Part shown: piece after piece, positions 3,188 through 56,574 of the stretch
How positions within the stretch are numbered: the first letter of the stretch is position 1
How the letters are laid out: every line of letters starts with the position of its first letter
Assembly: GCA_038851075.1 (NCBI GenBank)
Contig: JAWCLG010000002.1
Coordinates: forward strand, 32,001-96,000
Direction of reading: 5' to 3'
Length of the DNA stretch: 64,000 nt
DNA from: Candidatus Hadarchaeales archaeon
GTDB taxonomy: Archaea; Hadarchaeota; Hadarchaeia; Hadarchaeales; Hadarchaeaceae
The notes under the pieces: generated by a model
Databases searched by the model: none
Told to the model about the DNA's origin: nothing
Seen by the model: the letters and a program-made list of their open reading frames with translations, nothing else
Position numbers and translations under genes: made by a program

Positions 3188-3596
3188 GCTCTACCACAAA
3201 ACTCAGCAAAGTATCCTTGCACCTTAATTTTTCAACAAATGGTCTCGAAAGGTTTCCAGATGACTTATCCGCTTTTATGGCGAGGGTTCTCCCGCAGATA
3301 TAGCTACTCTTTCTCACCACAATATCTGAAGGGTGAACCATTGTCAGGGAAGGATCACCATATGCGTGTACTGTCTCAGTCAAACCCCCAGCGGTCATTT
3401 TAATTCGAACCCCTTTTCCCCCAATTATCCCCCTCCTCAGCTCCTCTGGAAAATCATGAAATGATTTATCGGCACATACTCCAACGATACAATCTCCACG
3501 CGGGCCAACTTCTGGATCCTTGGTTATCATCAACGTTGTTCTGTGCCTCGCAGTTATGTTTGGATGCCCTCTTGCCCGAATAACTATCCTCTTCAT
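3180..3596 (-). CDS. DUF371 family protein
   Basis: ARGHPNITARHRTT..ITKD....RGDCIVGV.ADK, D.VVRKSSY.CGRTLAI.ADK; start trimmed to MKRIVIR. Confidence 0.85.
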   Translation of the reverse strand: MKRIVIRARGHPNITARHRTTLMITKDPEVGPRGDCIVGVCADKSFHDFPEELRRGIIGGKGVRIKMTAGGLTETVHAYGDPSLTMVHPSDIVVRKSSYICGRTLAIKADKSSGNLSRPFVEKLRCKDTLLSFVVELI

Positions 3597-22779: not shown

Positions 22780-23967
22780 TCAGGTCTTTCTTCCCTCAAG
22801 CAGATTCTCAAGCTCTTTCTCCAGCCACGCCACTGGCGCTTCCTGTATACCGATCTTTTTCTTCCCTTTAGAGCGCGCCTCCTTCACCTCAACAAGTCCG
22901 AGTCCCTCCATTCTTTTTAAATACTCCCAGAACTGGCTCTTCTCTCGTGGCTGCTCTCCGTATTCTTCGCATGCCGCACGATATGTTTTGTCTAGGTCTT
23001 CCCTTAACGTGTACGCCTTACCGGAAGATCTGAGTCTCCTGCACAGAGAGAGCAGAAGTATCTTTTCGTGGGGTAACAGCTCGCGCAAAACCTCGCGCTT
23101 GATAACCGGATAAACCTCGGCCTTTGCCTCCCTGACGTGCTCCGGATTGACCGAACTCTCTAACTTTCCATCTGCGATGAGCCCTGCCCTCCACAACAGC
23201 TCGAGCGCAAATCTAGCATCTCCAGTTGAAGATGCGATGTCGGCTATAAGATCCACAGACTCCTCCTCTACGGCCCCGGGTTTGAATGCCTCGTGGATTC
23301 TCTGCTGAAGTATGTCTTTAAGCTGCTCGGCAGTGTACCTGTTAAGCTCAAGCACGTTATGCATAAACGTGCTCTGTGTCGGGAGGTCAAGCGATTTGAG
23401 AAACTCCCTGTCCTTAGCAACAGCTATGATACTTATTCTGTTAGGCTGGCCTTCATCCTCATACATCCTAGTCAGCGAGTACATCAGGTCGGGACCCTCC
23501 ATGCGGACGTAATAGTCTATTTCATCAAGGCAAAGGGTGAGGTATGCATCGTGCGTCCTCATGTAGGTTGAGATCAGATCTATCAGTTTTTCCGGTGACA
23601 GCCCATGATGAGGCCATTTTGGATTGTAATGATGATGTATTTTGGATATGATCGAAAAGTAGCTCTTGTCCTTTCTGCAGTTTATGTGGAGATAGCTCAG
23701 ATTCATTCCTCTCCCCTTCGCCGTAGCCTCCAGATCGGCGCCAAACCTTCCCGCTATGGCAGTCTTTCCTACCCCAACGCTTCCTGTGATTAAAACCCGC
23801 TGGCTCATCCTGTTCTCCAGGAGAGGTCTAAAAACTCTGATTAACCATCTAAACTCCTCATCTCTGTGCACCAAAACCTGAGGGACGTAGTCTGGAGAGA
23901 GTTTGCTCGCGTCCCTGAAAACTGACGGCCTTTCCAGTTCCTCCTCGAAGAGATTCCTCATTTGCAC
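22780..23967 (-). CDS. cdc6: Orc1/Cdc6 replication initiator paralog
   Basis: L.PDYVP..L.HR, Walker A GSVGVGKT, INC, LDEID, GDAR.AL.LL, C-terminal winged helix. Confidence 0.92.
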   Translation of the reverse strand: MQMRNLFEEELERPSVFRDASKLSPDYVPQVLVHRDEEFRWLIRVFRPLLENRMSQRVLITGSVGVGKTAIAGRFGADLEATAKGRGMNLSYLHINCRKDKSYFSIISKIHHHYNPKWPHHGLSPEKLIDLISTYMRTHDAYLTLCLDEIDYYVRMEGPDLMYSLTRMYEDEGQPNRISIIAVAKDREFLKSLDLPTQSTFMHNVLELNRYTAEQLKDILQQRIHEAFKPGAVEEESVDLIADIASSTGDARFALELLWRAGLIADGKLESSVNPEHVREAKAEVYPVIKREVLRELLPHEKILLLSLCRRLRSSGKAYTLREDLDKTYRAACEEYGEQPREKSQFWEYLKRMEGLGLVEVKEARSKGKKKIGIQEAPVAWLEKELENLLEGRKT

Positions 23968-36133: not shown

Positions 36134-37102
36134 TCAGGCGGTGTGTAGCTTTTCGAAATACTTGCGCACCGGAGCAAACAACTCCGCCAAACCATGTGAA
36201 ACTGCTTCTTTGAGGTCCGCCGGGTGTAGATTGCCCTCTGAGTAAAGTTTTCTCAGCTCTGAAGTCGTTTCTACTTCTATTGTACCACCATACTTCTGCG
36301 GCCTCTCTATCCTAAGCTTCCCCATGCGCTGTAATAATAGGTGTTCTGCGTATTCGATAACCGGGTTTCCATCTATTTTCTTTGGTGGGCAGAAGGCCTT
36401 TCCTATTTTTTCCTTTATCTCGCTAGGAGAATCGTCAACAGCCACAAAATTACCCTTACTGGACGACATCTTATCTGAGCCGTCTATTCCGCGAAGGAGG
36501 GGCATGTGAATGCATACTGGTTTTTTGTGTCCCAATGCCGGTAACTTCTCTCTGGCAATCATGTGAACTTTTCTCTGGTCTTCACCTCCAACCGCTATGT
36601 CGACGTTCAGATGGGCAATGTCCACCGCCTGCATGAGCGGATAAATCACTTGCGCCACGTCGGGATCCTCCATCCTTCTGGCTATTTCTGCCATCGATCT
36701 TCTAGCCCTCAGCAGCGTTGTCTGTGTTGCCATCTTGAATACGTCCATCACGTATTGTCTATCAGTCTGAAATTCAGAGCCCAACTTAAATTCGGTGGTA
36801 CGTGGATCCAACCCCAAACCAATAAAACAACGCTTATTATATTCTGCTATCTTTCTTATTTCATCCAATTCTCCCTTGCCGTTTAAATACGCGTGAAGAT
36901 CTGCCAGAAGAACCGTGACCTTGGCCCCCGCTTTTTGCAAATCCAGTAACTTGAACGCGGTTAAAACGTGCCCGAAATGTATTTTGCCTGATGGCTCATA
37001 ACCGCAGTAAGCTGTGAATCTCCCGGCTGTCAGGTCGGCTAGCTCTTCGGCCGTGATCACCTCAGACGCGCCTTTAATAACTAGCGAGAGCCTTTCGTTC
37101 AA
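36134..37102 (-). CDS. tyrS: Tyrosine--tRNA ligase
   Basis: YCGYEPSGKIHFGH, YPLMQAVDI, GGEDQRK.H, KMSSS, LHPADLK. Confidence 0.96.
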   Translation of the reverse strand: MNERLSLVIKGASEVITAEELADLTAGRFTAYCGYEPSGKIHFGHVLTAFKLLDLQKAGAKVTVLLADLHAYLNGKGELDEIRKIAEYNKRCFIGLGLDPRTTEFKLGSEFQTDRQYVMDVFKMATQTTLLRARRSMAEIARRMEDPDVAQVIYPLMQAVDIAHLNVDIAVGGEDQRKVHMIAREKLPALGHKKPVCIHMPLLRGIDGSDKMSSSKGNFVAVDDSPSEIKEKIGKAFCPPKKIDGNPVIEYAEHLLLQRMGKLRIERPQKYGGTIEVETTSELRKLYSEGNLHPADLKEAVSHGLAELFAPVRKYFEKLHTA

Positions 37103-37151
37103 CCTACCACCATGAAAAAGTCGTTACTATAACTAAAAGTCTACCGCATCG

Positions 37152-37553
37152 CTACTGAACCGACATTTTTCTGCGTCCCCTAGCTTTCCACTGGAGGACC
37201 CTGTCCTTCCACTTTTCAAATTTCTCTGTTTCAAACGAGGGCCCACCCCATTTTAAAATAAAATCTAAAAGACGAAAAAGATCTTCTTTTCTCCTTAACT
37301 CCAATCTATAAAGCCCGCCGCGCGTTACCACTTTACCCGCACCCAAAATTTTTCTAGCGGTTTCCACTGGATAGATCTTCTTAGAGTCTGCGTAAAAGAC
37401 CGGATTGATGTAGCCGTATTTTATTTCTCCTTTTTTAGTTTTTTTTGTTATATTTATTTTATTTACTGTATAAACCCCTTTAAACTCAAGAAATGCTATA
37501 AGCCATCCTATATCATACTCTTTTCCTTTCATTTTATCTAATATATTTATCAT
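37152..37553 (-). CDS. Degenerate single-motif LAGLIDADG homing-endonuclease-like protein
   Basis: WLIAFLEFKGVY resembles W(L/I)AGFxDGEGSF; YINPVF, ILGAGKV, YRLELRRKEDL..LLDF and K.EKW follow the I-CreI-type layout. Confidence 0.6.
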   Translation of the reverse strand: MINILDKMKGKEYDIGWLIAFLEFKGVYTVNKINITKKTKKGEIKYGYINPVFYADSKKIYPVETARKILGAGKVVTRGGLYRLELRRKEDLFRLLDFILKWGGPSFETEKFEKWKDRVLQWKARGRRKMSVQ

Positions 37554-37778
37554 AACTATTTATTAATAATAGATAATTATTCCAGTGGAAACTAAGGGGT
37601 GGCCGTCAAGTGCGGGGAAAAAATTGTTATGTTTTTTTCTTAAAATAAAAAATAAATAGTTTAGAAAACCGAAAAATGGTAATTAAATGTTTGATAACGT
37701 CCAAATTGGTAAAATAAAAAACATGAAAATCAAGGCCAGTCCGGCGACCCCCCTCCCCAAAGTTGGCTTAAGGCAAAC
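37177..37778. promoter_or_regulatory. oriC: Candidate replication origin (ORB elements plus AT-rich unwinding region)
   Basis: TCCAGTGGAAACTAAGGGG (+, 37581-37599), TCCAGTGGAAAGCTAGGGG (-, 37177-37195), mini-ORB TCCAGTGGAAAC (-, 37360-37371); very AT-rich 37617-37733. Confidence 0.7.
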
Positions 37779-37792
37779 TAAACAAACAAAGT

Positions 37793-38629
37793 TTGGGTAG
37801 GGAAGTGTACTACCAAAGAATTGACGTAAAAAACGCCGTTTGTGGATATTCGACGTCTAGTAAGAGCTATGGGGTACGAGAGGGGGCTTTTTTTAATGCT
37901 AGAAAAAAGACATTTCAGAGGTACACTGAAACGATAGATGGGAAAAAACCAGTGGAGCTTACCCCATCAGAGGTTTCCAAGGCAGCCGAGGCAGGGGCAA
38001 TAGCATTTTACTGTTCGTACTGGCTATACGACTGTAACGACTTTAGAGAACCGACCGGTAGAGATCTCGTTTGGGTTATCCGAATAGAGAAAGGGGACTT
38101 GGAGTTCGCGAAAAAGTTGACGAGAGCAGCCGCAGAGGCATTGTGGGAAGCAGGGGCGGAGCCTTTTGTAAAGTATTCTGGAGACCTAGGATTCGACATT
38201 ATATTGCCTCTAGAAAGCATACCGTTCGAAGTCTGGCATGGAAATATAGACGCACTGGATGACCTTCAGGGTGAGCTTTCCGATGTCATAGTCAGCAGTA
38301 TCCGCTCACGGCTAGGGCTGGTTGTAGAGGGAGACAGACACTCGTTTAAAATAAAAGAGGATGAAAAAACCTCCCTCCTCTCCGAACTCCGGGTGAAGCG
38401 AGGCCTTTTGCTTGCGCCGATGAGCATAAACCCGGAGACAGGGCTGGTTTCTGTCCCGGTGGATCCTAGGGAGCTAGATAATTTTACAATCTTTGACGCG
38501 AGCCCGTCTAAAGTCATAGGCAAAATATGGAGATTCGGTTCTGGCCCGAGTTATGGTCTAATCAAATACGCGAAGCTTGGTCAAGTTCGATCTTTGGAGG
38601 ATAATCAGTCAGAGGAGCAGGCGTTTTAG
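37793..38629 (+). CDS. Archaeo-eukaryotic primase (AEP / LigD-Pol-like) fold protein with degenerate active site
   Basis: GRDLVWVIRI (motif I position), KYSGDLGFDI.LP (motif II), LLAPMS.NPETGLVSVP (motif III). Confidence 0.65.
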   Translation: MGREVYYQRIDVKNAVCGYSTSSKSYGVREGAFFNARKKTFQRYTETIDGKKPVELTPSEVSKAAEAGAIAFYCSYWLYDCNDFREPTGRDLVWVIRIEKGDLEFAKKLTRAAAEALWEAGAEPFVKYSGDLGFDIILPLESIPFEVWHGNIDALDDLQGELSDVIVSSIRSRLGLVVEGDRHSFKIKEDEKTSLLSELRVKRGLLLAPMSINPETGLVSVPVDPRELDNFTIFDASPSKVIGKIWRFGSGPSYGLIKYAKLGQVRSLEDNQSEEQAF

Positions 38630-46632: not shown

Positions 46633-46779
46633 GTTTCCAGACTTAGTTTTCCACTGATTTCCACTGATTCCACTGGAAAAAGAAAGAAAAAGGTAAGTTT
46701 TAAGAAAAAGAGCGTTTTTCTAGCCGATAAAAAAAGAACTAAAAATAAGCTAGATTCGTCAGATGCTGGAGTTTTCCAG
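46633..46779. repeat. Cluster of mini-ORB-like repeats upstream of mcm
   Basis: TTTCCACTGA twice (46648-46667) followed by TTCCACTGGAAA (46668-46679), palindrome CTGGA-N4-TCCAG (46766-46779), A-rich spacer. Confidence 0.6.
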
Positions 46780-49050: not shown

Positions 49051-49592
49051 TGCGGAAGAGCGTCATGTTTGGAGAAGAGATGGAAGAAGTTAAGCTCGTT
49101 GATAGGACGTTAGGACCGTTTTCTGCCGGAGATGAGGTTGAGCTCTGGAAATGGGATGCAGAAGTGCTCGAAAAGCATTCTCTGGTGGTTCCTTCAAAGT
49201 TATTTTCAGTTCAGGATATGCGCAAGTTAGCACTGCTTCAGGAGAGAAGTCAGAGCCCGATTACTCTCCCAGCAGACTTTTACAGCATCGCATTAGACAG
49301 CTTTAGGGACATTCTATCTTCTGAGGGCAGGAAGGCGGCCGATGAGATGAAATCCGCATTGATGTCTCTTGTTGAGATAAGGATACCAAAACTGGTTTTA
49401 CTTTCCGTGTCTTCCGGTTCGGGTTTTAATCTTCCACCGGAGGAGATGGTGCTTATCAACAGGATTTCGGAGGAAGTTGATGAATGGAGCAGAAAATTTT
49501 TGAATGAGCTGAAAAAAATCGGGGAGGAGGTAGAAAAAGGTGGTTCAGGAGGGACTGTTCCACGAAATTCTACGGACGAGGCAGATATTTAA
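49047..49592 (+). CDS. GINS subunit (Gins23-type, B-A domain order)
   Basis: GPF..GD.VEL..W.A..L N-terminal B-domain, LP.DFY, R..K, L..EE helical A-domain; coupled to mcm. Confidence 0.75.
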   Translation: MMRKSVMFGEEMEEVKLVDRTLGPFSAGDEVELWKWDAEVLEKHSLVVPSKLFSVQDMRKLALLQERSQSPITLPADFYSIALDSFRDILSSEGRKAADEMKSALMSLVEIRIPKLVLLSVSSGSGFNLPPEEMVLINRISEEVDEWSRKFLNELKKIGEEVEKGGSGGTVPRNSTDEADI

Positions 49593-50814
49593 AAATAGGG
49601 AGTATCTCAGACCGAGCTACACGCCGGATGAACTCCCACATAGAGAAGATCAGATCAAACAGCTCGCCAGAATACTCGCCGCACCACTGCGTGGAGAAAC
49701 TCCATCCAACATATTCATATATGGAAAACCCGGCACCGGAAAGACGGCATGTGTCAACTATGTCGGAAAGGAACTCGAAAAAGTCAGCGATAATGCACCT
49801 TTTGGGGTGGAGGTTGTTTACCTTAACTGCGAGATCATCAACACACCGTATCGCATTCTCGCTAGGCTGTCAGACCACTTCATAGATAAGTTAAAAAGAT
49901 CCGAGGAAGGCGGAGATCAGGCGGTTATTCCGGAGAAGGCGCCTAAAACGGGATGGCCGATGGATGAAGTTTACAGGATTTTTTTCAACGCTTTGGACTC
50001 CAGAAAACAGCTTGGGGTGGTAATTCTCGACGAGGTAGATAAACTGGTTAAGAAGAGCGGAGACGATATACTTTACATCCTCACGAGGATGAATTCAGAC
50101 CTTAAGTCATCCAAAGTCGCTGTGGTTGGAATTTCAAATGACACCAACTTTATGGAGTACCTTGATCCAAGGGTTAGAAGTAGCCTTGGACAAGAGGAAA
50201 TAGTTTTTCCGGCCTACAACGCGCTGCAGCTGGCAGATATACTGCGAAAAAGAGCGGAGATGAGCTTTGTTGAAGGGGCTGTTGGGATTGGTGTGATAGA
50301 CCTCTGTGCTGCTCACGCGGCCAGAGAACACGGCGATGCTAGGAGAGCGCTTGATCTGCTGAGGGTTTCAGGCGAGATAGCAGAGTCAAAAAACGCAGAG
50401 GCAGTCACTACTGAGCATGTGATGCTGGCGCACTTGCAGATAGAGCGGGACAAAATGGTCGAGGTGATAAAAACCCTTCCAGCACAATCAAAGCTCGTCC
50501 TTTACAGTATAGTTTACCTCATGGAAAGGACACCACGTAGGATAGTGAGCGGCGATGTTTACAGCGTATATCGAGAAAAGTGTATCAGCACTGGAAATTC
50601 GGTGCTCACCCCGAGAAGAGTGAGCGACCTTATATCTGAGTTGGATACACTTGGCATAATCAGCGCAACAATAATCAACAAAGGCAGATACGGCAGAACA
50701 AAGGAGATAAAGCTGAATGTTCATCCCACCCAGGTGATGGCGGCGATCATCGAAGACCTACATGGAGTGAGCGCTAGCACAACAAGCGTTGCGGGGACCA
50801 GTTTTGGTTTTTAG
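49540..50814 (+). CDS. cdc6: Orc1/Cdc6 replication initiator (main type)
   Basis: IFKNRE.L...YTP..LPHR, GKPGTGKT, LDEVD, LDPRV.SSL, GDARRALDLLR, GRYGRTK wing. Confidence 0.96.
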   Translation: MVQEGLFHEILRTRQIFKNREYLRPSYTPDELPHREDQIKQLARILAAPLRGETPSNIFIYGKPGTGKTACVNYVGKELEKVSDNAPFGVEVVYLNCEIINTPYRILARLSDHFIDKLKRSEEGGDQAVIPEKAPKTGWPMDEVYRIFFNALDSRKQLGVVILDEVDKLVKKSGDDILYILTRMNSDLKSSKVAVVGISNDTNFMEYLDPRVRSSLGQEEIVFPAYNALQLADILRKRAEMSFVEGAVGIGVIDLCAAHAAREHGDARRALDLLRVSGEIAESKNAEAVTTEHVMLAHLQIERDKMVEVIKTLPAQSKLVLYSIVYLMERTPRRIVSGDVYSVYREKCISTGNSVLTPRRVSDLISELDTLGIISATIINKGRYGRTKEIKLNVHPTQVMAAIIEDLHGVSASTTSVAGTSFGF

Positions 50815-52356: not shown

Positions 52357-53152
52357 ATGCAGAGCGCTCGACGGAATTTCAGGCGTTATAATTGACCTTG
52401 ATGGAGTCGTGTGGGTGGGTAGAACAACAGTGGCTGGGGTCCAAGAGGCCATTCAGGCCATAAGAAGGATGGGAAAGCGAATAGTTTTCACGACAAATAA
52501 CTCCTCAAAAAGCAGGAAGGAGTACGTAAAGATGCTCAGGAGGTCAGGGGGGGATGCAGAGGAGCATGAGGTCTTAACTTCAGGATATGCTGCTGCGGAG
52601 TACCTTAGGCGAAAAAAAGACGCAGTCCGGGCCCATGTAGTTGGCGAGAGGGGACTTAGAGAGGAACTCGTGCGCGCCGGAATAAAGATTCTCCCAGAAG
52701 AAAAATCGGAGGATGCCACCCATCTGGTTGTTGGCTTAGACAGAACGATCAACTACAGAAAAATATGGTTCGCCATGAAGTCTCTCATGTCAGGAGCGGA
52801 GTTCGTGGCAACAAACACAGATCCAACTTACCCAACTGAACTCGGGCTTACACCAGGGGCTGGGGCGATTGTCGGTGCAATCTCAGGATGCTCGGGCAGA
52901 AATCCAGATGTAGTGCTCGGAAAACCATATCCTTACATCATGAAAATGGCTCTTGAATTGCTGGGCACAGGCGCAGGTCAGACCGCGATAATTGGCGACA
53001 GGCTGGAGGTTGATGTAAAGGCAGGAAAATTGTGTGGCATAAGGACAATACTAGTTTTGAGTGGGGTTACAAAAAGAGAAGATCTGAGAAAAGTGGAGAG
53101 GGATATGAGGCCAGATTTTGTTTTTAACAGTCTTTCAGAGGTGGTGTCATGA
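52349..53152 (+). CDS. HAD-superfamily hydrolase subfamily IIA (NagD-like)
   Basis: DLDGV, TNNS, GKP, IGDRL..D. Confidence 0.92.
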   Translation: MLRCRALDGISGVIIDLDGVVWVGRTTVAGVQEAIQAIRRMGKRIVFTTNNSSKSRKEYVKMLRRSGGDAEEHEVLTSGYAAAEYLRRKKDAVRAHVVGERGLREELVRAGIKILPEEKSEDATHLVVGLDRTINYRKIWFAMKSLMSGAEFVATNTDPTYPTELGLTPGAGAIVGAISGCSGRNPDVVLGKPYPYIMKMALELLGTGAGQTAIIGDRLEVDVKAGKLCGIRTILVLSGVTKREDLRKVERDMRPDFVFNSLSEVVS

Positions 53153-56100
53153 GCGGAGGTAACATGTTGGAGTACTTTAGGTCTATGAACGAGCAGATAG
53201 ACGGCATATATGAAATTGCCATAAAGGCGAGAGCTAAGGGGATAGATCCAGAACTTGAACCAGAAATACCGCGCGCCGGGGATCTCGCCTCTAGAGTTGA
53301 GCAACTTGTTGGTCCCAAAGGAGTTGCCGAGGTTATTCGAGACATGGAGAAGATCATGGGCAGAGAAGAGATGGCGCTGAAGATTGCGGAAATGATAATA
53401 GACGGCAGATTTGGAAGGTTAGATGAGGAAAAGGCGGCAGAGCAGGCGTTGAGGACGGTACTCGCGATTCTTACAGAGGGCGTGGTTATAGCCCCTCTTG
53501 AGGGCATAACTGGAGTTAGGATAAGAAAGAACTATGACAACACCAGATATCTCTCAATCTCTTTTGCAAGCCCAATTAGAGCGGCCGGAGGCACAGCCGC
53601 TGCGCTTTCCGTGCTGGCCGGAGATTTTGTCAGAAGGAAGCTGTTTCTGAGCCACTACAAACCAACCGTGGAAGAGGTGGAGAGGTTCGTTGAGGAGGTT
53701 GAGATATACGGCTTAGTGGCCCATGAGCAGTACAAGCCTCACGCTGACCACATACGTCTTGCAATACAGAACATCCCGGTTGAGATCACAGGGGAACCAA
53801 CCGAGAGAGATGTCACGGTAACTGCGTTCAGGAACATCGAGCGCATCGGGCATAATATGGTAAGGGGAGGTGCGGTACTTGCACTGACCGAGGGAGTTCT
53901 CCAGAAGGCTTCAAAGATAATGAAGTATGTGGAGAAACTTGGCATAGATGGATGGGCATGGCTTTCGAACGTTGTTCCTAAGACCACACCTGAGGAATCT
54001 GAAACTATTTTCCCGAAGGGAGATAGATATCTGGGAGAGGTAATAGCGGGAAGACCCATACTATCCCATCCAGGAACCGAGGGGCAGATGGGTAGAAGGG
54101 GAGGTTTTAGGCTCAGGTACGGACATTCGAGAAATACGGGAATCGCGGCGATCGGCATTCATCCTGCCACAATGATAATTTGCGATGACTTCATCGCGGT
54201 TGGTACGCAGTTGAAGGTCGAGCGTCCCGGAAAGGGCGGGGCCGTGACCCCAGTGGATTCCATAGAGGGACCGGTGGTAAAGCTTAAAGACGGCTCGGTT
54301 TTGCAGGTTTATTCAGAAGAGGAAGCGCTAAAAGTAAGGGATAGTGTTGCGGAAATACTCTGCCTAGGAGATATTCTTGTTGGATACGGGGAGTTCTTGG
54401 AGAACAATCATCCGTTGATGCCGGCAGGTTATTGTGAGGAATGGTGGAGTCAGGAGGTTAAAAAGGCGCTATCGGGGAAGGAGAGAAGGGACCTAGAAAA
54501 ATATATTGAAAAACCGTATCCGAGACCTAGCTCTGATCTTGCCGTCAGAATTTCGGAAGAACTTGGAGTACCGCTTCACCCGGCTTACACTTATCCATAC
54601 CACGACTTGGAGATAGAGGATCTCGTGAGTCTGGCAAGGTGGTTGGTCAAGGGGAGGCCGGAGTTTGACGGAGGGGTGCTGAGAAAACTGAGAATTCAGA
54701 TCGAGGAGGTTCCTAAACGAATTCTGGAAGAGCTATGCGTTCCCCACGGTGTTGATGGGAAAGATGTGGTTATTGAAGAGCATGCATATGCCCTGTGCAG
54801 GTCTCTCGGGTTGGTCTTCGGTGACTCACTTGTCATTGAGAGATTTGAGGGGGTCATGCGGTCCAGTTCAACCAAGGACATAATGGAGATAGTACAGGAA
54901 CTCGCAGGTTTTCCGATCAGAAAGAAGGCCCCGACAAGAATAGGTGCAAGGATGGGCAGACCGGAGAAGGCCAAGGAGAGGGAGATGAGCCCACCAGTCC
55001 ATGCTCTTTTTCCAGTAGGTTTTAAGGGGGGATCCACCCGCAGCATAGCGAGAGCAGCGGAGTCTGATGACCTAGAGGTGGAGCTTGCGAACATGGTTTG
55101 CCCGAGCTGTGGCTGGAGCGGTTTTACGAGAAAATGTCAGAAGTGCGGTTCTAAGGCTGAGCCTGTAAGAGTATGCCAGAAATGCATGGCCCCTGTTGAT
55201 GAAGATCGATGCCCAATCTGCAACTCACGCGCGGAGTTCTTCATTAAAAGAAGAATTAAACTAAAAGCAATGCTTGAGTCAGCGCTGAAGAGACTTGATG
55301 AATATCCGGAGCTCGTTAAAGGAGTGCAGGGCATGACAAGCGACTGGAAAATTCCGGAGCCGCTTGAAAAGGGAATCCTGCGGGCAAAACACGGAGTTCA
55401 GGTATTCAAGGATGGAACAGTTAGATTTGACGAGACAAATGTTCCGCTCACCCATTTCAAGCCAAAGGAGATTGGCGTCTCGGTGGAAAAGCTAAGAGAT
55501 CTTGGATACACAGTCGACTTTAACGGAAATCCGCTTGAGGCGGAAGATCAGGTGGTTGAGCTTAAGGTTCAGGATATTGTTATCTCGAGGGCATGTGCAG
55601 AATATCTGTTCAAAGCATCTAGGTTCATTGACGAGCTTCTGGAAAAGGTATATGGTCTTGCCCCTTATTACAATGCTAAAAGACCGGAGGACCTTTTGGG
55701 GCACATAGTCCTCGGTCTGGCTCCCCACACATCGGTTGGAATAGCGGGGCGCATCATAGGTTTCGTCGATGCCAGCGTTGGATATGCGCATCCATTTTTC
55801 CACGCTGCGAAAAGGAGGGACGCGGACGGTGATGAAGATTGTGTAATGTTGCTTCTCGATGCTTTATTGAACTTTAGCAGACGCTTTCTGCCTTCAAAAC
55901 GCGGTGGTCTAATGGACGCGCCGCTTATCCTCAGCACTCGGATAAATCCGGCAGAAATAGATAAGCAGGCTCATAACATGGACATAATGAATTTTTACCC
56001 GCTTGAGTTCTATGAGGCAACTTTGCGCTATGCGAGACCTCAGGAGGTTTTTGCTCAGATGAAAACAGCAGGTAAAAAAATAGGTACAGAGGATGAGTAC

Positions 56101-56574
56101 ACCGGATTTGGCTACACCCATGAGACTAACGATATTTCGGCAGGTCCGAAGTCAACTAGGTACATAAAGTTGACGACTATGGAGGAAAAGATTTCTGCCC
56201 AGCTGAGCCTGGCAAGGAAAATAAGGGCTGTTGATGAGAGAGATGTCGCAGAGCGGCTTATAAAGCACCACTTCATCCCAGACCTCAAAGGAAATTTGAG
56301 GACGTTTGCGACTCAAAAGTTCAGGTGTACATCATGCAATAATAGCCATCGCAGGATACCGCTCTCAGGAAAATGCACGAGGTGCGGAGGAAAACTCGTT
56401 CTTACTGTAACGAGAGGTGGGGTTGAAAAATACCTGCGTGTTGCCATGGACGTTGCCGATGACTACCATGTGAGTGAATACACAAAACAGAGGCTGAAGA
56501 TGACAAAAAAGGACATAGAGTCGATGTTCGAAAGTGATGCCTCCAGACAGCTGAGTCTGGCAGATTTCCTGTAA
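53149..56574 (+). CDS. polC: DNA polymerase D large subunit DP2
   Basis: PIRAAGGTA, GGFRLRYG..R, RIGARMGRPEKAK.R, AAKRRDADGDED, C-terminal PIP QLSLADF; no intein. Confidence 0.97.
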   Translation: MSGGNMLEYFRSMNEQIDGIYEIAIKARAKGIDPELEPEIPRAGDLASRVEQLVGPKGVAEVIRDMEKIMGREEMALKIAEMIIDGRFGRLDEEKAAEQALRTVLAILTEGVVIAPLEGITGVRIRKNYDNTRYLSISFASPIRAAGGTAAALSVLAGDFVRRKLFLSHYKPTVEEVERFVEEVEIYGLVAHEQYKPHADHIRLAIQNIPVEITGEPTERDVTVTAFRNIERIGHNMVRGGAVLALTEGVLQKASKIMKYVEKLGIDGWAWLSNVVPKTTPEESETIFPKGDRYLGEVIAGRPILSHPGTEGQMGRRGGFRLRYGHSRNTGIAAIGIHPATMIICDDFIAVGTQLKVERPGKGGAVTPVDSIEGPVVKLKDGSVLQVYSEEEALKVRDSVAEILCLGDILVGYGEFLENNHPLMPAGYCEEWWSQEVKKALSGKERRDLEKYIEKPYPRPSSDLAVRISEELGVPLHPAYTYPYHDLEIEDLVSLARWLVKGRPEFDGGVLRKLRIQIEEVPKRILEELCVPHGVDGKDVVIEEHAYALCRSLGLVFGDSLVIERFEGVMRSSSTKDIMEIVQELAGFPIRKKAPTRIGARMGRPEKAKEREMSPPVHALFPVGFKGGSTRSIARAAESDDLEVELANMVCPSCGWSGFTRKCQKCGSKAEPVRVCQKCMAPVDEDRCPICNSRAEFFIKRRIKLKAMLESALKRLDEYPELVKGVQGMTSDWKIPEPLEKGILRAKHGVQVFKDGTVRFDETNVPLTHFKPKEIGVSVEKLRDLGYTVDFNGNPLEAEDQVVELKVQDIVISRACAEYLFKASRFIDELLEKVYGLAPYYNAKRPEDLLGHIVLGLAPHTSVGIAGRIIGFVDASVGYAHPFFHAAKRRDADGDEDCVMLLLDALLNFSRRFLPSKRGGLMDAPLILSTRINPAEIDKQAHNMDIMNFYPLEFYEATLRYARPQEVFAQMKTAGKKIGTEDEYTGFGYTHETNDISAGPKSTRYIKLTTMEEKISAQLSLARKIRAVDERDVAERLIKHHFIPDLKGNLRTFATQKFRCTSCNNSHRRIPLSGKCTRCGGKLVLTVTRGGVEKYLRVAMDVADDYHVSEYTKQRLKMTKKDIESMFESDASRQLSLADFL

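Follow-up and report, generated by a model that had tools for sequence, protein, structure and literature searches.

Archaeal replication origins are pictured as non-coding ORB-DUE-ORB modules that are read by Orc1/Cdc6, and an orc1/cdc6 gene beside the origin is common in archaea, though not universal. LAGLIDADG proteins without catalysis are represented by WhiA, a bacterial protein made of two LAGLIDADG domains and a helix-turn-helix (HTH) domain, in which the scaffold was kept for DNA binding after cleavage was lost. The origins of Pyrococcus and Sulfolobus both show inverted ORBs around AT-rich DNA (PMC1904270, PMC12141716). In Sulfolobus oriC1 the order is ORB2-DUE-ORB3, with Orc1-1 as the initiator, and the ucm motif is occupied by UBP, an accessory factor (PMC12141716). 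Accessory origin factors such as UBP are emerging only now. In the Thermococcales, a cluster of ORBs and mini-ORBs inside the dp1 coding sequence is bound by Cdc6/Orc1 (PMC1904270).

The window, the whole stretch of 64,000 nucleotides analysed here, comes from an uncultured Hadarchaeales archaeon. All organisms compared are MAGs, and the assembly of the window is 1.0 Mb in size and 88% complete. Judged by its sequence, the stretch in Table 1 is a chromosomal replication origin, with an inverted, outward-pointing pair of ORBs with G-strings, an AT-rich core and a GC-skew minimum. The inverted pair, each member a dyad core followed by a G-string, encloses AT-rich DNA as is expected of an archaeal origin. 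The GC content drops to 0.25 at this place, and the mean over 18 loci was 0.25 at positions −50 to 0, 0.37–0.39 at +1 to 150 and 0.48–0.51 farther on. The GC skew changed sign at about 37.5 kb, with a cumulative minimum at 34–38 kb in the 64 kb examined. The ORB sequence is similar to the Pyrococcus ORB oligonucleotides printed in PMC1904270, and motifs akin to those of the spacer before the PriS-like gene are present in the origins of relatives. In these relatives tyrS was adjacent to the origin or no more than 1.7 kb away, and the PriS-like gene was syntenic in clades A and B. The two orc1/cdc6 genes, both above the TIGR02928 cut-off, are not adjacent but lie 12.0 and 13.6 kb off. A search of positions 36,900–38,000 against Rfam (E ≤ 1) gave no match.

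Table 1. Features of the Hadarchaeales origin region (positions in the window).
Feature	Position	Strand	Basis or remark
tyrS, class I Tyr/Trp tRNA synthetase	36134–37102	−	Conserved flank; PF00579, E 8e-52
LAGLIDADG_1-fold gene	37152–37553	−	133 aa from the first ATG; homologues, profile, AF2 model, dN/dS
tyrS-proximal full ORB, core + G-string	37176–37197	−	Exact core 37185–37195; dual-coded, codons 119–126, V-L-Q-W-K-A-R-G
Mini-ORB without G-string	37361–37371	−	Exact core over its whole length, in codons 61–65, Y-P-V-E-T; oriented as the tyrS-proximal ORB
AT-rich zone, candidate unwinding region	37400–37578		GC about 0.22–0.30; promoter spacer and first ~150 nt of coding sequence
LAGLIDADG motif helix	37476–37508	−	GWLIAFLEFKG, residues 16–26; sequence, aligned to solved enzymes
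Position of the catalytic acid (Lys25)	37479–37481	−	Profile alignment
Start chosen by gene callers (Met8)	37532	−	126 aa, P0012
Upstream full ORB, core + G-string	37579–37600	+	Exact core 37581–37591; inverted relative to the tyrS-proximal ORB; abuts the AT-rich promoter region of the gene
AT-rich spacer to the PriS-like gene	37601–37792		GTTATGTT motif; C/G-rich conserved element near 37733–37760
PriS/PrimPol-like gene	37793–38629	+	Conserved flank on the other side; weak PF21686 match, E 0.009
orc1/cdc6	22861–23922	−	TIGR02928
orc1/cdc6	49585–50715	+	TIGR02928

The core TCCAGTGGAAA is exact in all three boxes, which account for three of the four exact copies in the 1.0-Mb assembly; the reversed control pattern had 0 copies. 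When one mismatch was allowed, there were six matches, where shuffled sequences gave an expectation of 1.68. The full ORBs form the two arms of an inverted repeat of 32 nt, with 72% complementarity and a distance of 385 nt, and the 381 bp between the ORBs make an atypically long spacer because of the gene inside. The core of the upstream ORB ends 27 bp before the first ATG and 48 bp before Met8, and an ORB with at most one core mismatch was present 26–80 bp upstream of the gene at 17 of the 18 loci. The first-pass annotation had placed a full ORB with G-string and a mini-ORB inside the coding sequence, in LQWKARG and PVET codons, and a third ORB just upstream of the start, and all three were recovered at these places.

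As the last codons of the gene are also the tyrS-proximal ORB, this segment carries two codes. Its DNA motif, CT[C/G] [C/G]AG TGG AA[A/G] nnn AGG G, was found in all 18 homologues. The codon of Arg125 was AGG in 18/18 homologues, compared to 5/18 at the invariant Arg87, and the codon of Lys123 was AAA in 15/18, compared to 7/18 at Lys89. Conservation of the ORBs at synonymous sites, which had been put forward as a check, was therefore observed for this ORB, and it may be that the invariance of W122, K123 and R125 comes wholly from the DNA constraint. The mini-ORB was retained at the aligned position, with up to two mismatches, in 10 of the 12 clade-A homologues and in none of the six from family f2. 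The ORB dyad was considered as a cleavage target and rejected, since the gene is flanked by an intact ORB on either side. As with dp1 (PMC1904270), initiator-binding boxes lie in a coding sequence and are conserved across relatives. There, the host gene encodes a polymerase subunit beside oriC, whereas here it is a putative homing-endonuclease relic between the ORBs, and the dual-coded box is one of the two inverted ORBs that define the origin, unlike the dp1 cluster. The likeness to Sulfolobus oriC1 (PMC12141716) lies in the inverted ORBs around an AT-rich element and in a second, non-initiator DNA-binding protein in the origin, putative in our case. Unlike in Sulfolobus, the 381-bp space between the ORBs itself encodes the candidate factor and orc1 is not adjacent; no homology to UBP is claimed.

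Where the gene lies between the ORBs, neither strand has any other ORF of 40 aa or more. Met8, the start chosen by the gene callers, agrees with the place where the homologues begin and is probably the true start. Homologues with open frames were found in 17 related genomes, with 34–59% identity and E-values from 1e-15 to 1e-42, and the family alignment contains 13 invariant columns. The origin-type gene exists in a single copy per genome, and every complete copy is an open frame. The dN/dS ratio was 0.095–0.291 along the whole protein in the 10 of 12 pairs for which it could be computed, and third-codon positions are free to vary except in the ORB codons. This is a real gene under purifying selection, part of which could stem from the DNA-level constraints of the origin. 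The description of the ORF as free-standing and 133 aa long stood, and its position between tyrS and the PriS-like gene confirmed that it lies outside any intron or intein.

The product is a single-domain LAGLIDADG_1 protein, in agreement with the fold first proposed. Of the 18 family members, 16 matched PF00961, with a best E of 6.3e-9. Taken by itself, the window protein had no Pfam match at E ≤ 10 and no NCBIfam match. The family profile retrieved 4yit (E 1.6e-10), 3e54, which is I-Vdi141I (E 2e-10), and 5gkk (E 8.2e-9) from the PDB. The AF2 model of the window protein (pLDDT 84.7) has the order H-E-E-H-E-E-H, with helices at residues 4–25, 60–70 and 89–102 and strands at 26–39, 42–57, 74–78 and 81–86. 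Foldseek placed 3e54_A first (E 9.7e-7, TMq 0.67) among 118 matches at E ≤ 0.001; the top matches listed were all LAGLIDADG endonucleases with a probability of 1.00. The window protein shares one motif and an alpha-beta-beta-alpha-beta-beta-alpha core of about 110 residues with the homodimeric single-motif enzymes I-Vdi141I (3e54), I-TnaI (5gkk), I-CreI (1t9i) and I-CeuI (2ex5), and such endonucleases were its best matches by profile and by Foldseek. A dimer through the motif helix was likewise predicted: the homodimer reached an ipSAE of 0.69, compared to 0.02 for the best of three controls, with an interface at residues 9–25, contacts agreeing by at least 83% between runs and a partner pLDDT of at least 82. 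Among proteins of solved structure, the mark was attained by 20 of the 30 that are pairs of one chain and by one of the 23 that are single chains; as similar homodimers are already solved, the score is to be read as likeness and not as binding.

The window protein differs from these endonucleases in several respects. It has an extra C-terminal helix (residues 110–130), partly encoded by the ORB, and its gene sits between the ORBs of a chromosomal origin and not in an rRNA intron or intein. Also in contrast to the single-motif enzymes, this gene is inherited vertically. The motif of an active enzyme (GxxD/E-x-D/E-G) ends with an acidic, metal-binding residue, which is replaced here: in an alignment of the motif helix with three motifs from solved enzymes, GFIEAEG, GFVDGEG and GFIDGEG, Lys25 fell on the catalytic Glu of I-Vdi141I (GFIEAEG), so that the loss of the catalytic acid noted for AFLEFKG is real in this copy. 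At this position the members from 24 genomes have K (14), E (5), A (2), C (1), R (1) or G (1), and the database clusters have K (9), E (5), G (3), S (2) or D (1), counted in the 20 of 25 clusters that match the motif pattern. Since Glu or Asp is retained in 5/24 genome members and 6/20 clusters, some copies could still cut, and perhaps not every member of the family is "dead". The fold-defining residues are invariant, in contrast to a catalytic position that is free to change, and a catalytic acid so unconserved (K, E, D, G, S, A, C or R) implies that cleavage is not what selection keeps. The comparison with WhiA made in the first-pass annotation was useful for the idea of a domesticated LAGLIDADG protein and failed for the architecture, which was rejected: the window protein is a single domain of 126–133 aa, with no HTH, no Pfam match to WhiA and no further Pfam or NCBIfam match.

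In every locus examined, the orthologue sat at an ORB-flanked origin. The same tyrS-linked origin, lacking the LAGLIDADG gene (LAG), exists in sister clades, and seven of ten tyrS loci from genomes without it showed inverted ORB pairs with spacers of 68–166 bp, compared to 381 bp in the window. On these grounds the gene appears to occupy a pre-existing origin, and the suggestion that a homing element had spread the origin and left the gene as its relic was rejected. The direction of change, insertion as opposed to precise deletion, was deduced from parsimony with an arbitrary root. Both origin types retain, upstream of the start codon, an AT-rich stretch that contains a GTTATG(T/A)TA-type motif. 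This suggests that the body of the ORF has the unwinding element on one side and the tyrS-proximal ORB on the other; the divergence of the sequences is too great for an exact junction.

The sister clades carry beside the origin an unrelated gene of 187 aa, FSFD. Among 65 genomes, LAG was at the origin in 25, FSFD in 31, both in 0 and neither in nine, each of these nine being less than 96% complete. In the DP2 tree, the genomes with LAG belonged to family f2 (5) and to clade A (15, beside 4 with no match), and those with FSFD to clade B (20) and family f5 (2). The LAG tree recovered f2, g1 and the g2+g10+g1 group, and a single LAG clade had a p of 0.10 in the AU test. The TyrRS tree was set aside, being internally unresolved for f1/f2, with a TyrRS that looks transferred or of two types. 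By these trees, LAG is inherited vertically through two clades. The pattern is clade-wide, needs one or two switches only and has no sign of recent mobility; resting on so few switches, the complementarity lends no statistical weight to functional equivalence and could reflect one replacement of the origin region. In one metagenomic lineage the whole cassette is inverted relative to its flanks, and even with rearranged flanks or an inverted cassette LAG was never found outside an ORB pair. Literature searches found no description of a LAGLIDADG gene inside an archaeal origin. What is new here is a LAG gene in a pre-existing origin, the complementary distribution of LAG and FSFD and the cassette inverted in one lineage.

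As the gene is kept by selection, its product is probably now a host DNA-binding factor, with an origin-related role suggested by its location. We lean, with moderate confidence, towards a domesticated homing-endonuclease relic that has become an origin-linked, homodimeric DNA binder. In this scenario a free-standing homing endonuclease gene, of a kind still present in the provirus of one relative, would have settled in the gap that separates one ORB from the unwinding element, with its frame running on through this ORB, and would later have been domesticated. The protein would form an I-CreI-like homodimer through the motif helix and bind a pseudo-palindromic DNA site without cutting, most plausibly within or near the origin. 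Since the promoter abuts the upstream ORB and the transcript must cross the mini-ORB and the tyrS-proximal ORB, Orc1 occupancy would be coupled to expression of the gene: Orc1 binding may repress or block transcription, and transcription may clear Orc1. We infer in the same way the binding of the origin or regulation of replication by the protein and the control of its gene by Orc1/Cdc6, both first proposed from the sequence. It is possible that the LAGLIDADG protein replaces the FSFD of other clades.

A rather unlikely alternative is that we see a homing endonuclease gene that is selfish and nothing more, still active in part of the lineages and in decay elsewhere. It would have no host function and would be trapped in the origin, deletions being lethal because its 3' end is an essential ORB and its AT-rich 5' part is unwinding DNA. 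LAGLIDADG_1 membership, the existence of empty and filled origin alleles, the minority of copies with an acidic catalytic residue, a provirus-borne paralogue and the occurrence of the cassette in either orientation, expected of a symmetric target or of recombination between inverted ORBs, are all in keeping with it. Trapping, however, protects the DNA and not the frame, yet complete copies are open with a dN/dS of 0.10–0.29 over the whole protein. The clade-wide spread, with one or two switches and a LAG tree that tracks the DP2 tree, differs from the patchiness expected of a homing cycle, and a catalytic position that is free to vary beside invariant fold-defining residues also argues against this explanation. 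The provirus paralogue has a canonical GFVEGEG motif and lies beside a terminase-like ORF, with no ORBs. It matched no locus in viral contigs, a family member had no tblastn match in 50,697 phage records, and P0010 had no relative in the genome contigs.

We consider it quite improbable that the protein is a domesticated, WhiA-like regulator with targets elsewhere, for which the site in the origin would be an accident providing Orc1-linked, cell-cycle-timed expression. Purifying selection without a conserved catalytic residue, a promoter abutting the upstream ORB and the precedent of domesticated LAGLIDADG regulators fit this possibility as well, but the gene stays in the ORB pair despite rearranged flanks or an inverted cassette, and its distribution is complementary to that of FSFD, another origin-adjacent gene. 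A chance ORF whose conservation is only that of the origin DNA (ORBs and AT-rich DNA) is hardly credible in spite of the AT-richness and the constrained DNA elements of the region, being refuted by third-codon positions free outside the ORB codons, a dN/dS far below 1, profile matches to solved LAGLIDADG enzymes, the confident alpha-beta-beta-alpha-beta-beta-alpha model and open frames at 33–59% identity in two families.

The domesticated origin-linked binder may be only part of a broader picture, which we regard as doubtful: a self-contained cassette of origin plus cofactor, born from a selfish element, in which the origins of Hadarchaeales depend on a clade-specific accessory protein whose gene lies at the origin. 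The ancestral FSFD, transcribed outward across an ORB, would have given way in one branch to a domesticated homing endonuclease lodged between the ORBs. As a nuclease-dead dimer, the LAGLIDADG protein would recognise a pseudo-palindromic motif of the unwinding region and would help or gate Orc1-dependent MCM loading, its synthesis being switched by Orc1 occupancy of the bracketing and overlapping ORBs.

Throughout the history of two clades, a protein gene has been lodged between the defining ORBs, one of which is doubly coded. This clearly exemplifies the capture of a homing-endonuclease gene at the non-coding site that is most conserved in a chromosome, and it provides a natural test of the spacing and transcription that an archaeal origin tolerates. 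The related genomes constitute a natural "with and without" comparison that includes a second, unrelated origin-adjacent gene, FSFD, and the proteins are small and open to direct in vitro work on defined origin DNA. FSFD had no Pfam, NCBIfam or PDB profile match; its single-sequence AF2 model was uninformative (pLDDT 48), and hhalign gave a probability of 0.3% against the LAGLIDADG family. In the protein atlas, FSFD corresponded to one archaeal cluster only (0.88).

The LAGLIDADG (LAG) gene encodes 133 aa, and over its stretch no other ORF on either strand reaches 40 aa. Public gene calls place its start at Met8 (126 aa, protein P0012), and the N-termini of the homologues fall at approximately the same point. 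A six-frame search of 40 relatives recovered homologues as open frames in 17 genomes (E-values from 1e-15 to 1e-42, 34–59% identity), and 13 columns were invariant in A1, the alignment of 18 sequences of the family. The dN/dS ratio was 0.095–0.291 in 10 pairs (Nei-Gojobori), dS being saturated in two further pairs. The first-pass annotation had described a degenerate LAGLIDADG frame carrying ORBs; its ORF, motif and ORB positions were borne out in every detail on re-examination, and the dN/dS values point to purifying selection. This is a real, conserved and selected gene lying between the ORBs of the origin.

The locus bears an origin signature. The exact ORB core TCCAGTGGAAA was present three times within 410 bp and only four times in the whole 1,009,249-bp assembly, where the reversed control pattern gave 0 copies. 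The two full ORBs form an inverted repeat of 32 nt, whose arms are 72% complementary and 385 nt apart. The GC content fell to 0.25–0.26 at 37400–37700, the sign of the GC skew switched near 37.5 kb, and over the whole window the cumulative skew was lowest at 34–38 kb. Inverted ORBs and AT-rich DNA are also found in the Pyrococcus oriC (available part of PMC1904270) and in the Sulfolobus oriC1 (available part of PMC12141716); unlike the usual case, no initiator gene adjoins the origin. Some 9 kb from the origin, overlapping mini-ORB-like repeats were also visible upstream of the mcm-orc1-PolD cluster (Table).

Table. Coordinates of the origin features in the window and of related features in relatives (L, loci; G, genomes)
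Feature	Location	Strand	Remark
LAG gene	window 37152-37553	-	
ORB core, exact	window 37185-37195	-	
ORB core, exact	window 37361-37371	-	
ORB core, exact	window 37581-37591	+	
Full ORB	window 37176-37197	-	G-string three bases past core, pointing outward
Full ORB	window 37579-37600	+	G-string three bases past core, pointing outward
Orc1/Cdc6 gene	window 49585-50715	+	above TIGR02928 cut-off
Orc1/Cdc6 gene	window 22861-23922	-	above TIGR02928 cut-off
Mini-ORB-like repeats	window 46658-46679		
DP2 gene	window 53149-56574		uninterrupted
Split-DP2 relatives	G001:C6, G042:C60, G044:C13, G026:C37, G038:C5, G039:C186, G031:C12		
FSFD gene	L034:2637-3197	+	homologues in L032, L035-L038, L067, L069, L072-L082
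LAGLIDADG paralogue of G040	L061:1471-1860	-	129 aa
ORF beside paralogue	L061:1876-3057	-	
ORF beside paralogue	L061:262-966	-	
GAGAGGGGTCGCCGAAAGTATTC-type element	window 37733-37760; L032 ~575-605; L069 ~565-595; L034 ~3225-3250		
GTTACA..TGTAAC-type motifs	L069 1256-1271, 598-612; L067 2793-2810; window 37625-37632		

The 3' end of the gene read CT[C/G] [C/G]AG TGG AA[A/G] nnn AGG G in 18/18 homologues. The 3' ORB differed from the 11-nt core by at most one mismatch in 12 of them, and the remaining six, which encode VLEWK, had two mismatches and kept AGTGGAA and the G-run. Within the ORB, Arg125 was encoded by AGG in 18/18 copies and Lys123 by AAA in 15/18, whereas the invariant control Arg87 used five codons (AGG in 5/18) and the control Lys89 was AAA in 7/18; the copies are kin, so that these counts represent no probability. 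This clear contrast between residues of the same genes indicates that the segment is under constraint as an ORB at the DNA level, and the conservation at synonymous sites that the first-pass annotation had named as a check is indeed seen. The 3' ORB is thus dual-coded, as protein and as ORB. It resembles in this respect the ORBs bound by Cdc6 inside the coding sequence of the Thermococcales dp1 gene (available part of PMC1904270). At its aligned position the mid-gene mini-ORB had at most two mismatches in 10/12 sequences from the clade of the window and in 0/6 from family f2. In 17/18 loci an upstream ORB with no more than one mismatch in its core was located 26–80 bp 5' of the start.

The window protein alone had no match in Pfam; LAGLIDADG_1 was matched by 16/18 family members (best E-value 6.3e-9). 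The family profile retrieved solved structures: I-AabMI (1.6e-10), the archaeal rRNA-intron enzyme I-Vdi141I (3e54, 2e-10) and I-TnaI (5gkk, 8e-9). The AlphaFold2 model built from A1 (pLDDT 84.7, pTM 0.72) was organized as helix, two strands, helix, two strands, helix, with an extra C-terminal helix at 110–130. In Foldseek its top match was 3e54_A (9.7e-7), with 118 matches at E<=0.001, and among the matches listed all were LAGLIDADG endonucleases, so that the proposed fold was recovered by profile and by structure. In the predicted two-copy complex the motif helices (residues 9–25) were packed on each other, with a score of 0.69 as compared to 0.02 for the highest-scoring of three controls, agreement of contacts between runs of at least 83% and pLDDT of at least 82. 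The mark for this score was reached by 20/30 solved same-chain pairs and by 1/23 solved single chains; the modelled score shows a likeness to solved LAGLIDADG homodimers rather than binding.

The motif, residues 16–26, is GWLIAFLEFKG. In profile alignments with solved enzymes the family's Lys faced the final Glu in the motifs GFIEAEG, GFVDGEG and GFIDGEG, the metal-binding residue of the LAGLIDADG family. This position was K in 14, E in 5, A in 2 and C, R and G in one each of 24 genome copies, and K in 9, E in 5, G in 3, S in 2 and D in 1 of the database clusters (20/25 clusters, those fitting the motif pattern); E and K switched inside genera. Since the position drifts while the fold-defining residues are invariant, cleavage is not maintained by selection. 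The family has lost the constraint on its catalytic residue, and a minority of copies could still cut.

Empty origins, i.e., ORB pairs lacking the gene, exist in sister clades. At the tyrS locus of ten genomes without a detected homologue, seven (L032-L038) had two ORBs in inverted orientation, their G-strings facing outward, around AT-rich spacers of 75, 74, 68, 166, 141, 68 and 74 bp, respectively, against 381 bp in the window. In the other three, the contig ended at tyrS in one and no ORB was seen in two. Two further loci, L067 and L069, had one clear ORB each, and none of all these loci showed LAGLIDADG similarity. The compact pairs imply that the gene was either inserted into a compact origin that already existed or lost from such an origin by clean removal. 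A GTTATG(T/A)TA-type motif in the AT-rich segment just 5' of the start codon was shared with the empty spacers, and the first 150 nt of coding sequence were AT-enriched (mean GC 0.37–0.39 versus 0.48–0.51 downstream). In our reading, the unwinding element was retained as the promoter region of the gene, whose body lies between this element and the tyrS-proximal ORB and reads through that ORB.

In empty-origin genomes an unrelated gene of about 187 aa, FSFD, named for its conserved N-terminal motif, started 8–40 bp outside one ORB and was transcribed away from the origin. It is unannotated, conserved (24 invariant columns in 12 sequences) and absent from the window's genome; no match was found against Pfam, NCBIfam and PDB profiles, and profile comparison with the LAGLIDADG family likewise showed no similarity. 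The LAG gene was found at the origin in 25/65 Hadarchaeales genomes (26 matches at E<=1e-8, that of G040, a paralogue, being set apart), FSFD in 31/65, exclusively among those devoid of an origin LAG gene, both at an origin in 0/65, and neither in 9/65. These nine genomes were 65–95% complete, and contigs broke at tyrS in two. Extending the search to the phylum brought in one more genome, without a match.

A tree of DP2, the PolD large subunit (46 genomes, LG+G4, quick search, arbitrary root on family f5, genomes with DP2 split by an intein or contig end omitted), distributed the two genes by clade: two FSFD in f5, five LAG in f2, 15 LAG and four without hit in the window's clade (SH-aLRT 99), and 20 FSFD in its sister clade (SH-aLRT 97). 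Two state changes were needed, so few that the complementarity is without statistical force, and a single LAG clade was not rejected by the AU test (p 0.10). The LAG tree (28 rows, 128 columns, weakly resolved) recovered f2, g1 and the g2+g10+g1 group, as did the DP2 tree. Inheritance of the gene is clade-wide and vertical, the state having switched once or twice in the distant past; this pattern does not fit a homing cycle. In seven relatives (Table) the DP2 match was split near residue 890 within one long open frame of 1471–1695 aa, a pattern that suggests an intein there.

One lineage, represented by ten metagenome loci (L130-L139), carries the whole ORB-gene-ORB cassette in the opposite orientation with respect to tyrS and the PriS-like gene. 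In the LAG tree the proteins of these loci, 83–100% identical to protein P0001, were placed as sister to genus g11. Such an inversion would be expected if the inverted ORBs recombined with each other, or if the cassette was inserted into a symmetric site. In another locus, L140, a full ORB was located at the stop codon, with the in-frame peptide REWR. The G040 paralogue, a weak match, has a canonical GFVEGEG motif and no ORB nearby. Its neighbours, named by eye, are presumably a terminase-large-subunit-like protein and a Cas4-like nuclease, which give the locus the look of a provirus, as it probably is. It is possible that a paralogue of this kind was the source of the origin-resident family.

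We propose that the LAG protein would be a non-cutting homodimeric DNA binder with its site in the origin. Orc1 on the upstream ORB would occlude the promoter, and transcription would have to cross the mini-ORB and the 3' ORB, which could couple expression to origin licensing. The gene may have functionally replaced FSFD. In the full-text literature outside subscription journals and supplements, we found no relevant description of a LAGLIDADG gene tied to an archaeal origin, Orc1/Cdc6 or ORB, and a search on the Hadarchaeota replication origin found nothing on topic. The synonymous-site control, the empty origins, the complementary FSFD gene, the tree, the inverted cassette and the provirus paralogue are, to our knowledge, new here.

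Both origin types have a conserved G/C-rich element of the GAGAGGGGTCGCCGAAAGTATTC type immediately 5' of the PriS-like gene; it gave no Rfam match in the window region and might serve as a promoter, as a leader or as some other element of the origin. Palindromic GTTACA..TGTAAC-type motifs recurred both within the AT-rich spacers of the origins and 5' of the PriS-like gene, and are candidate sites for a dimeric DNA-binding protein. The TyrRS of genera g15, g16 and g6 (L035-L038, L071) was 35–46% identical to that of the window, versus 61–77% in all other Hadarchaeales loci, and the TyrRS of G040 (family f4) grouped with family f1; the existence of two TyrRS types, or transfer, is the probable explanation.
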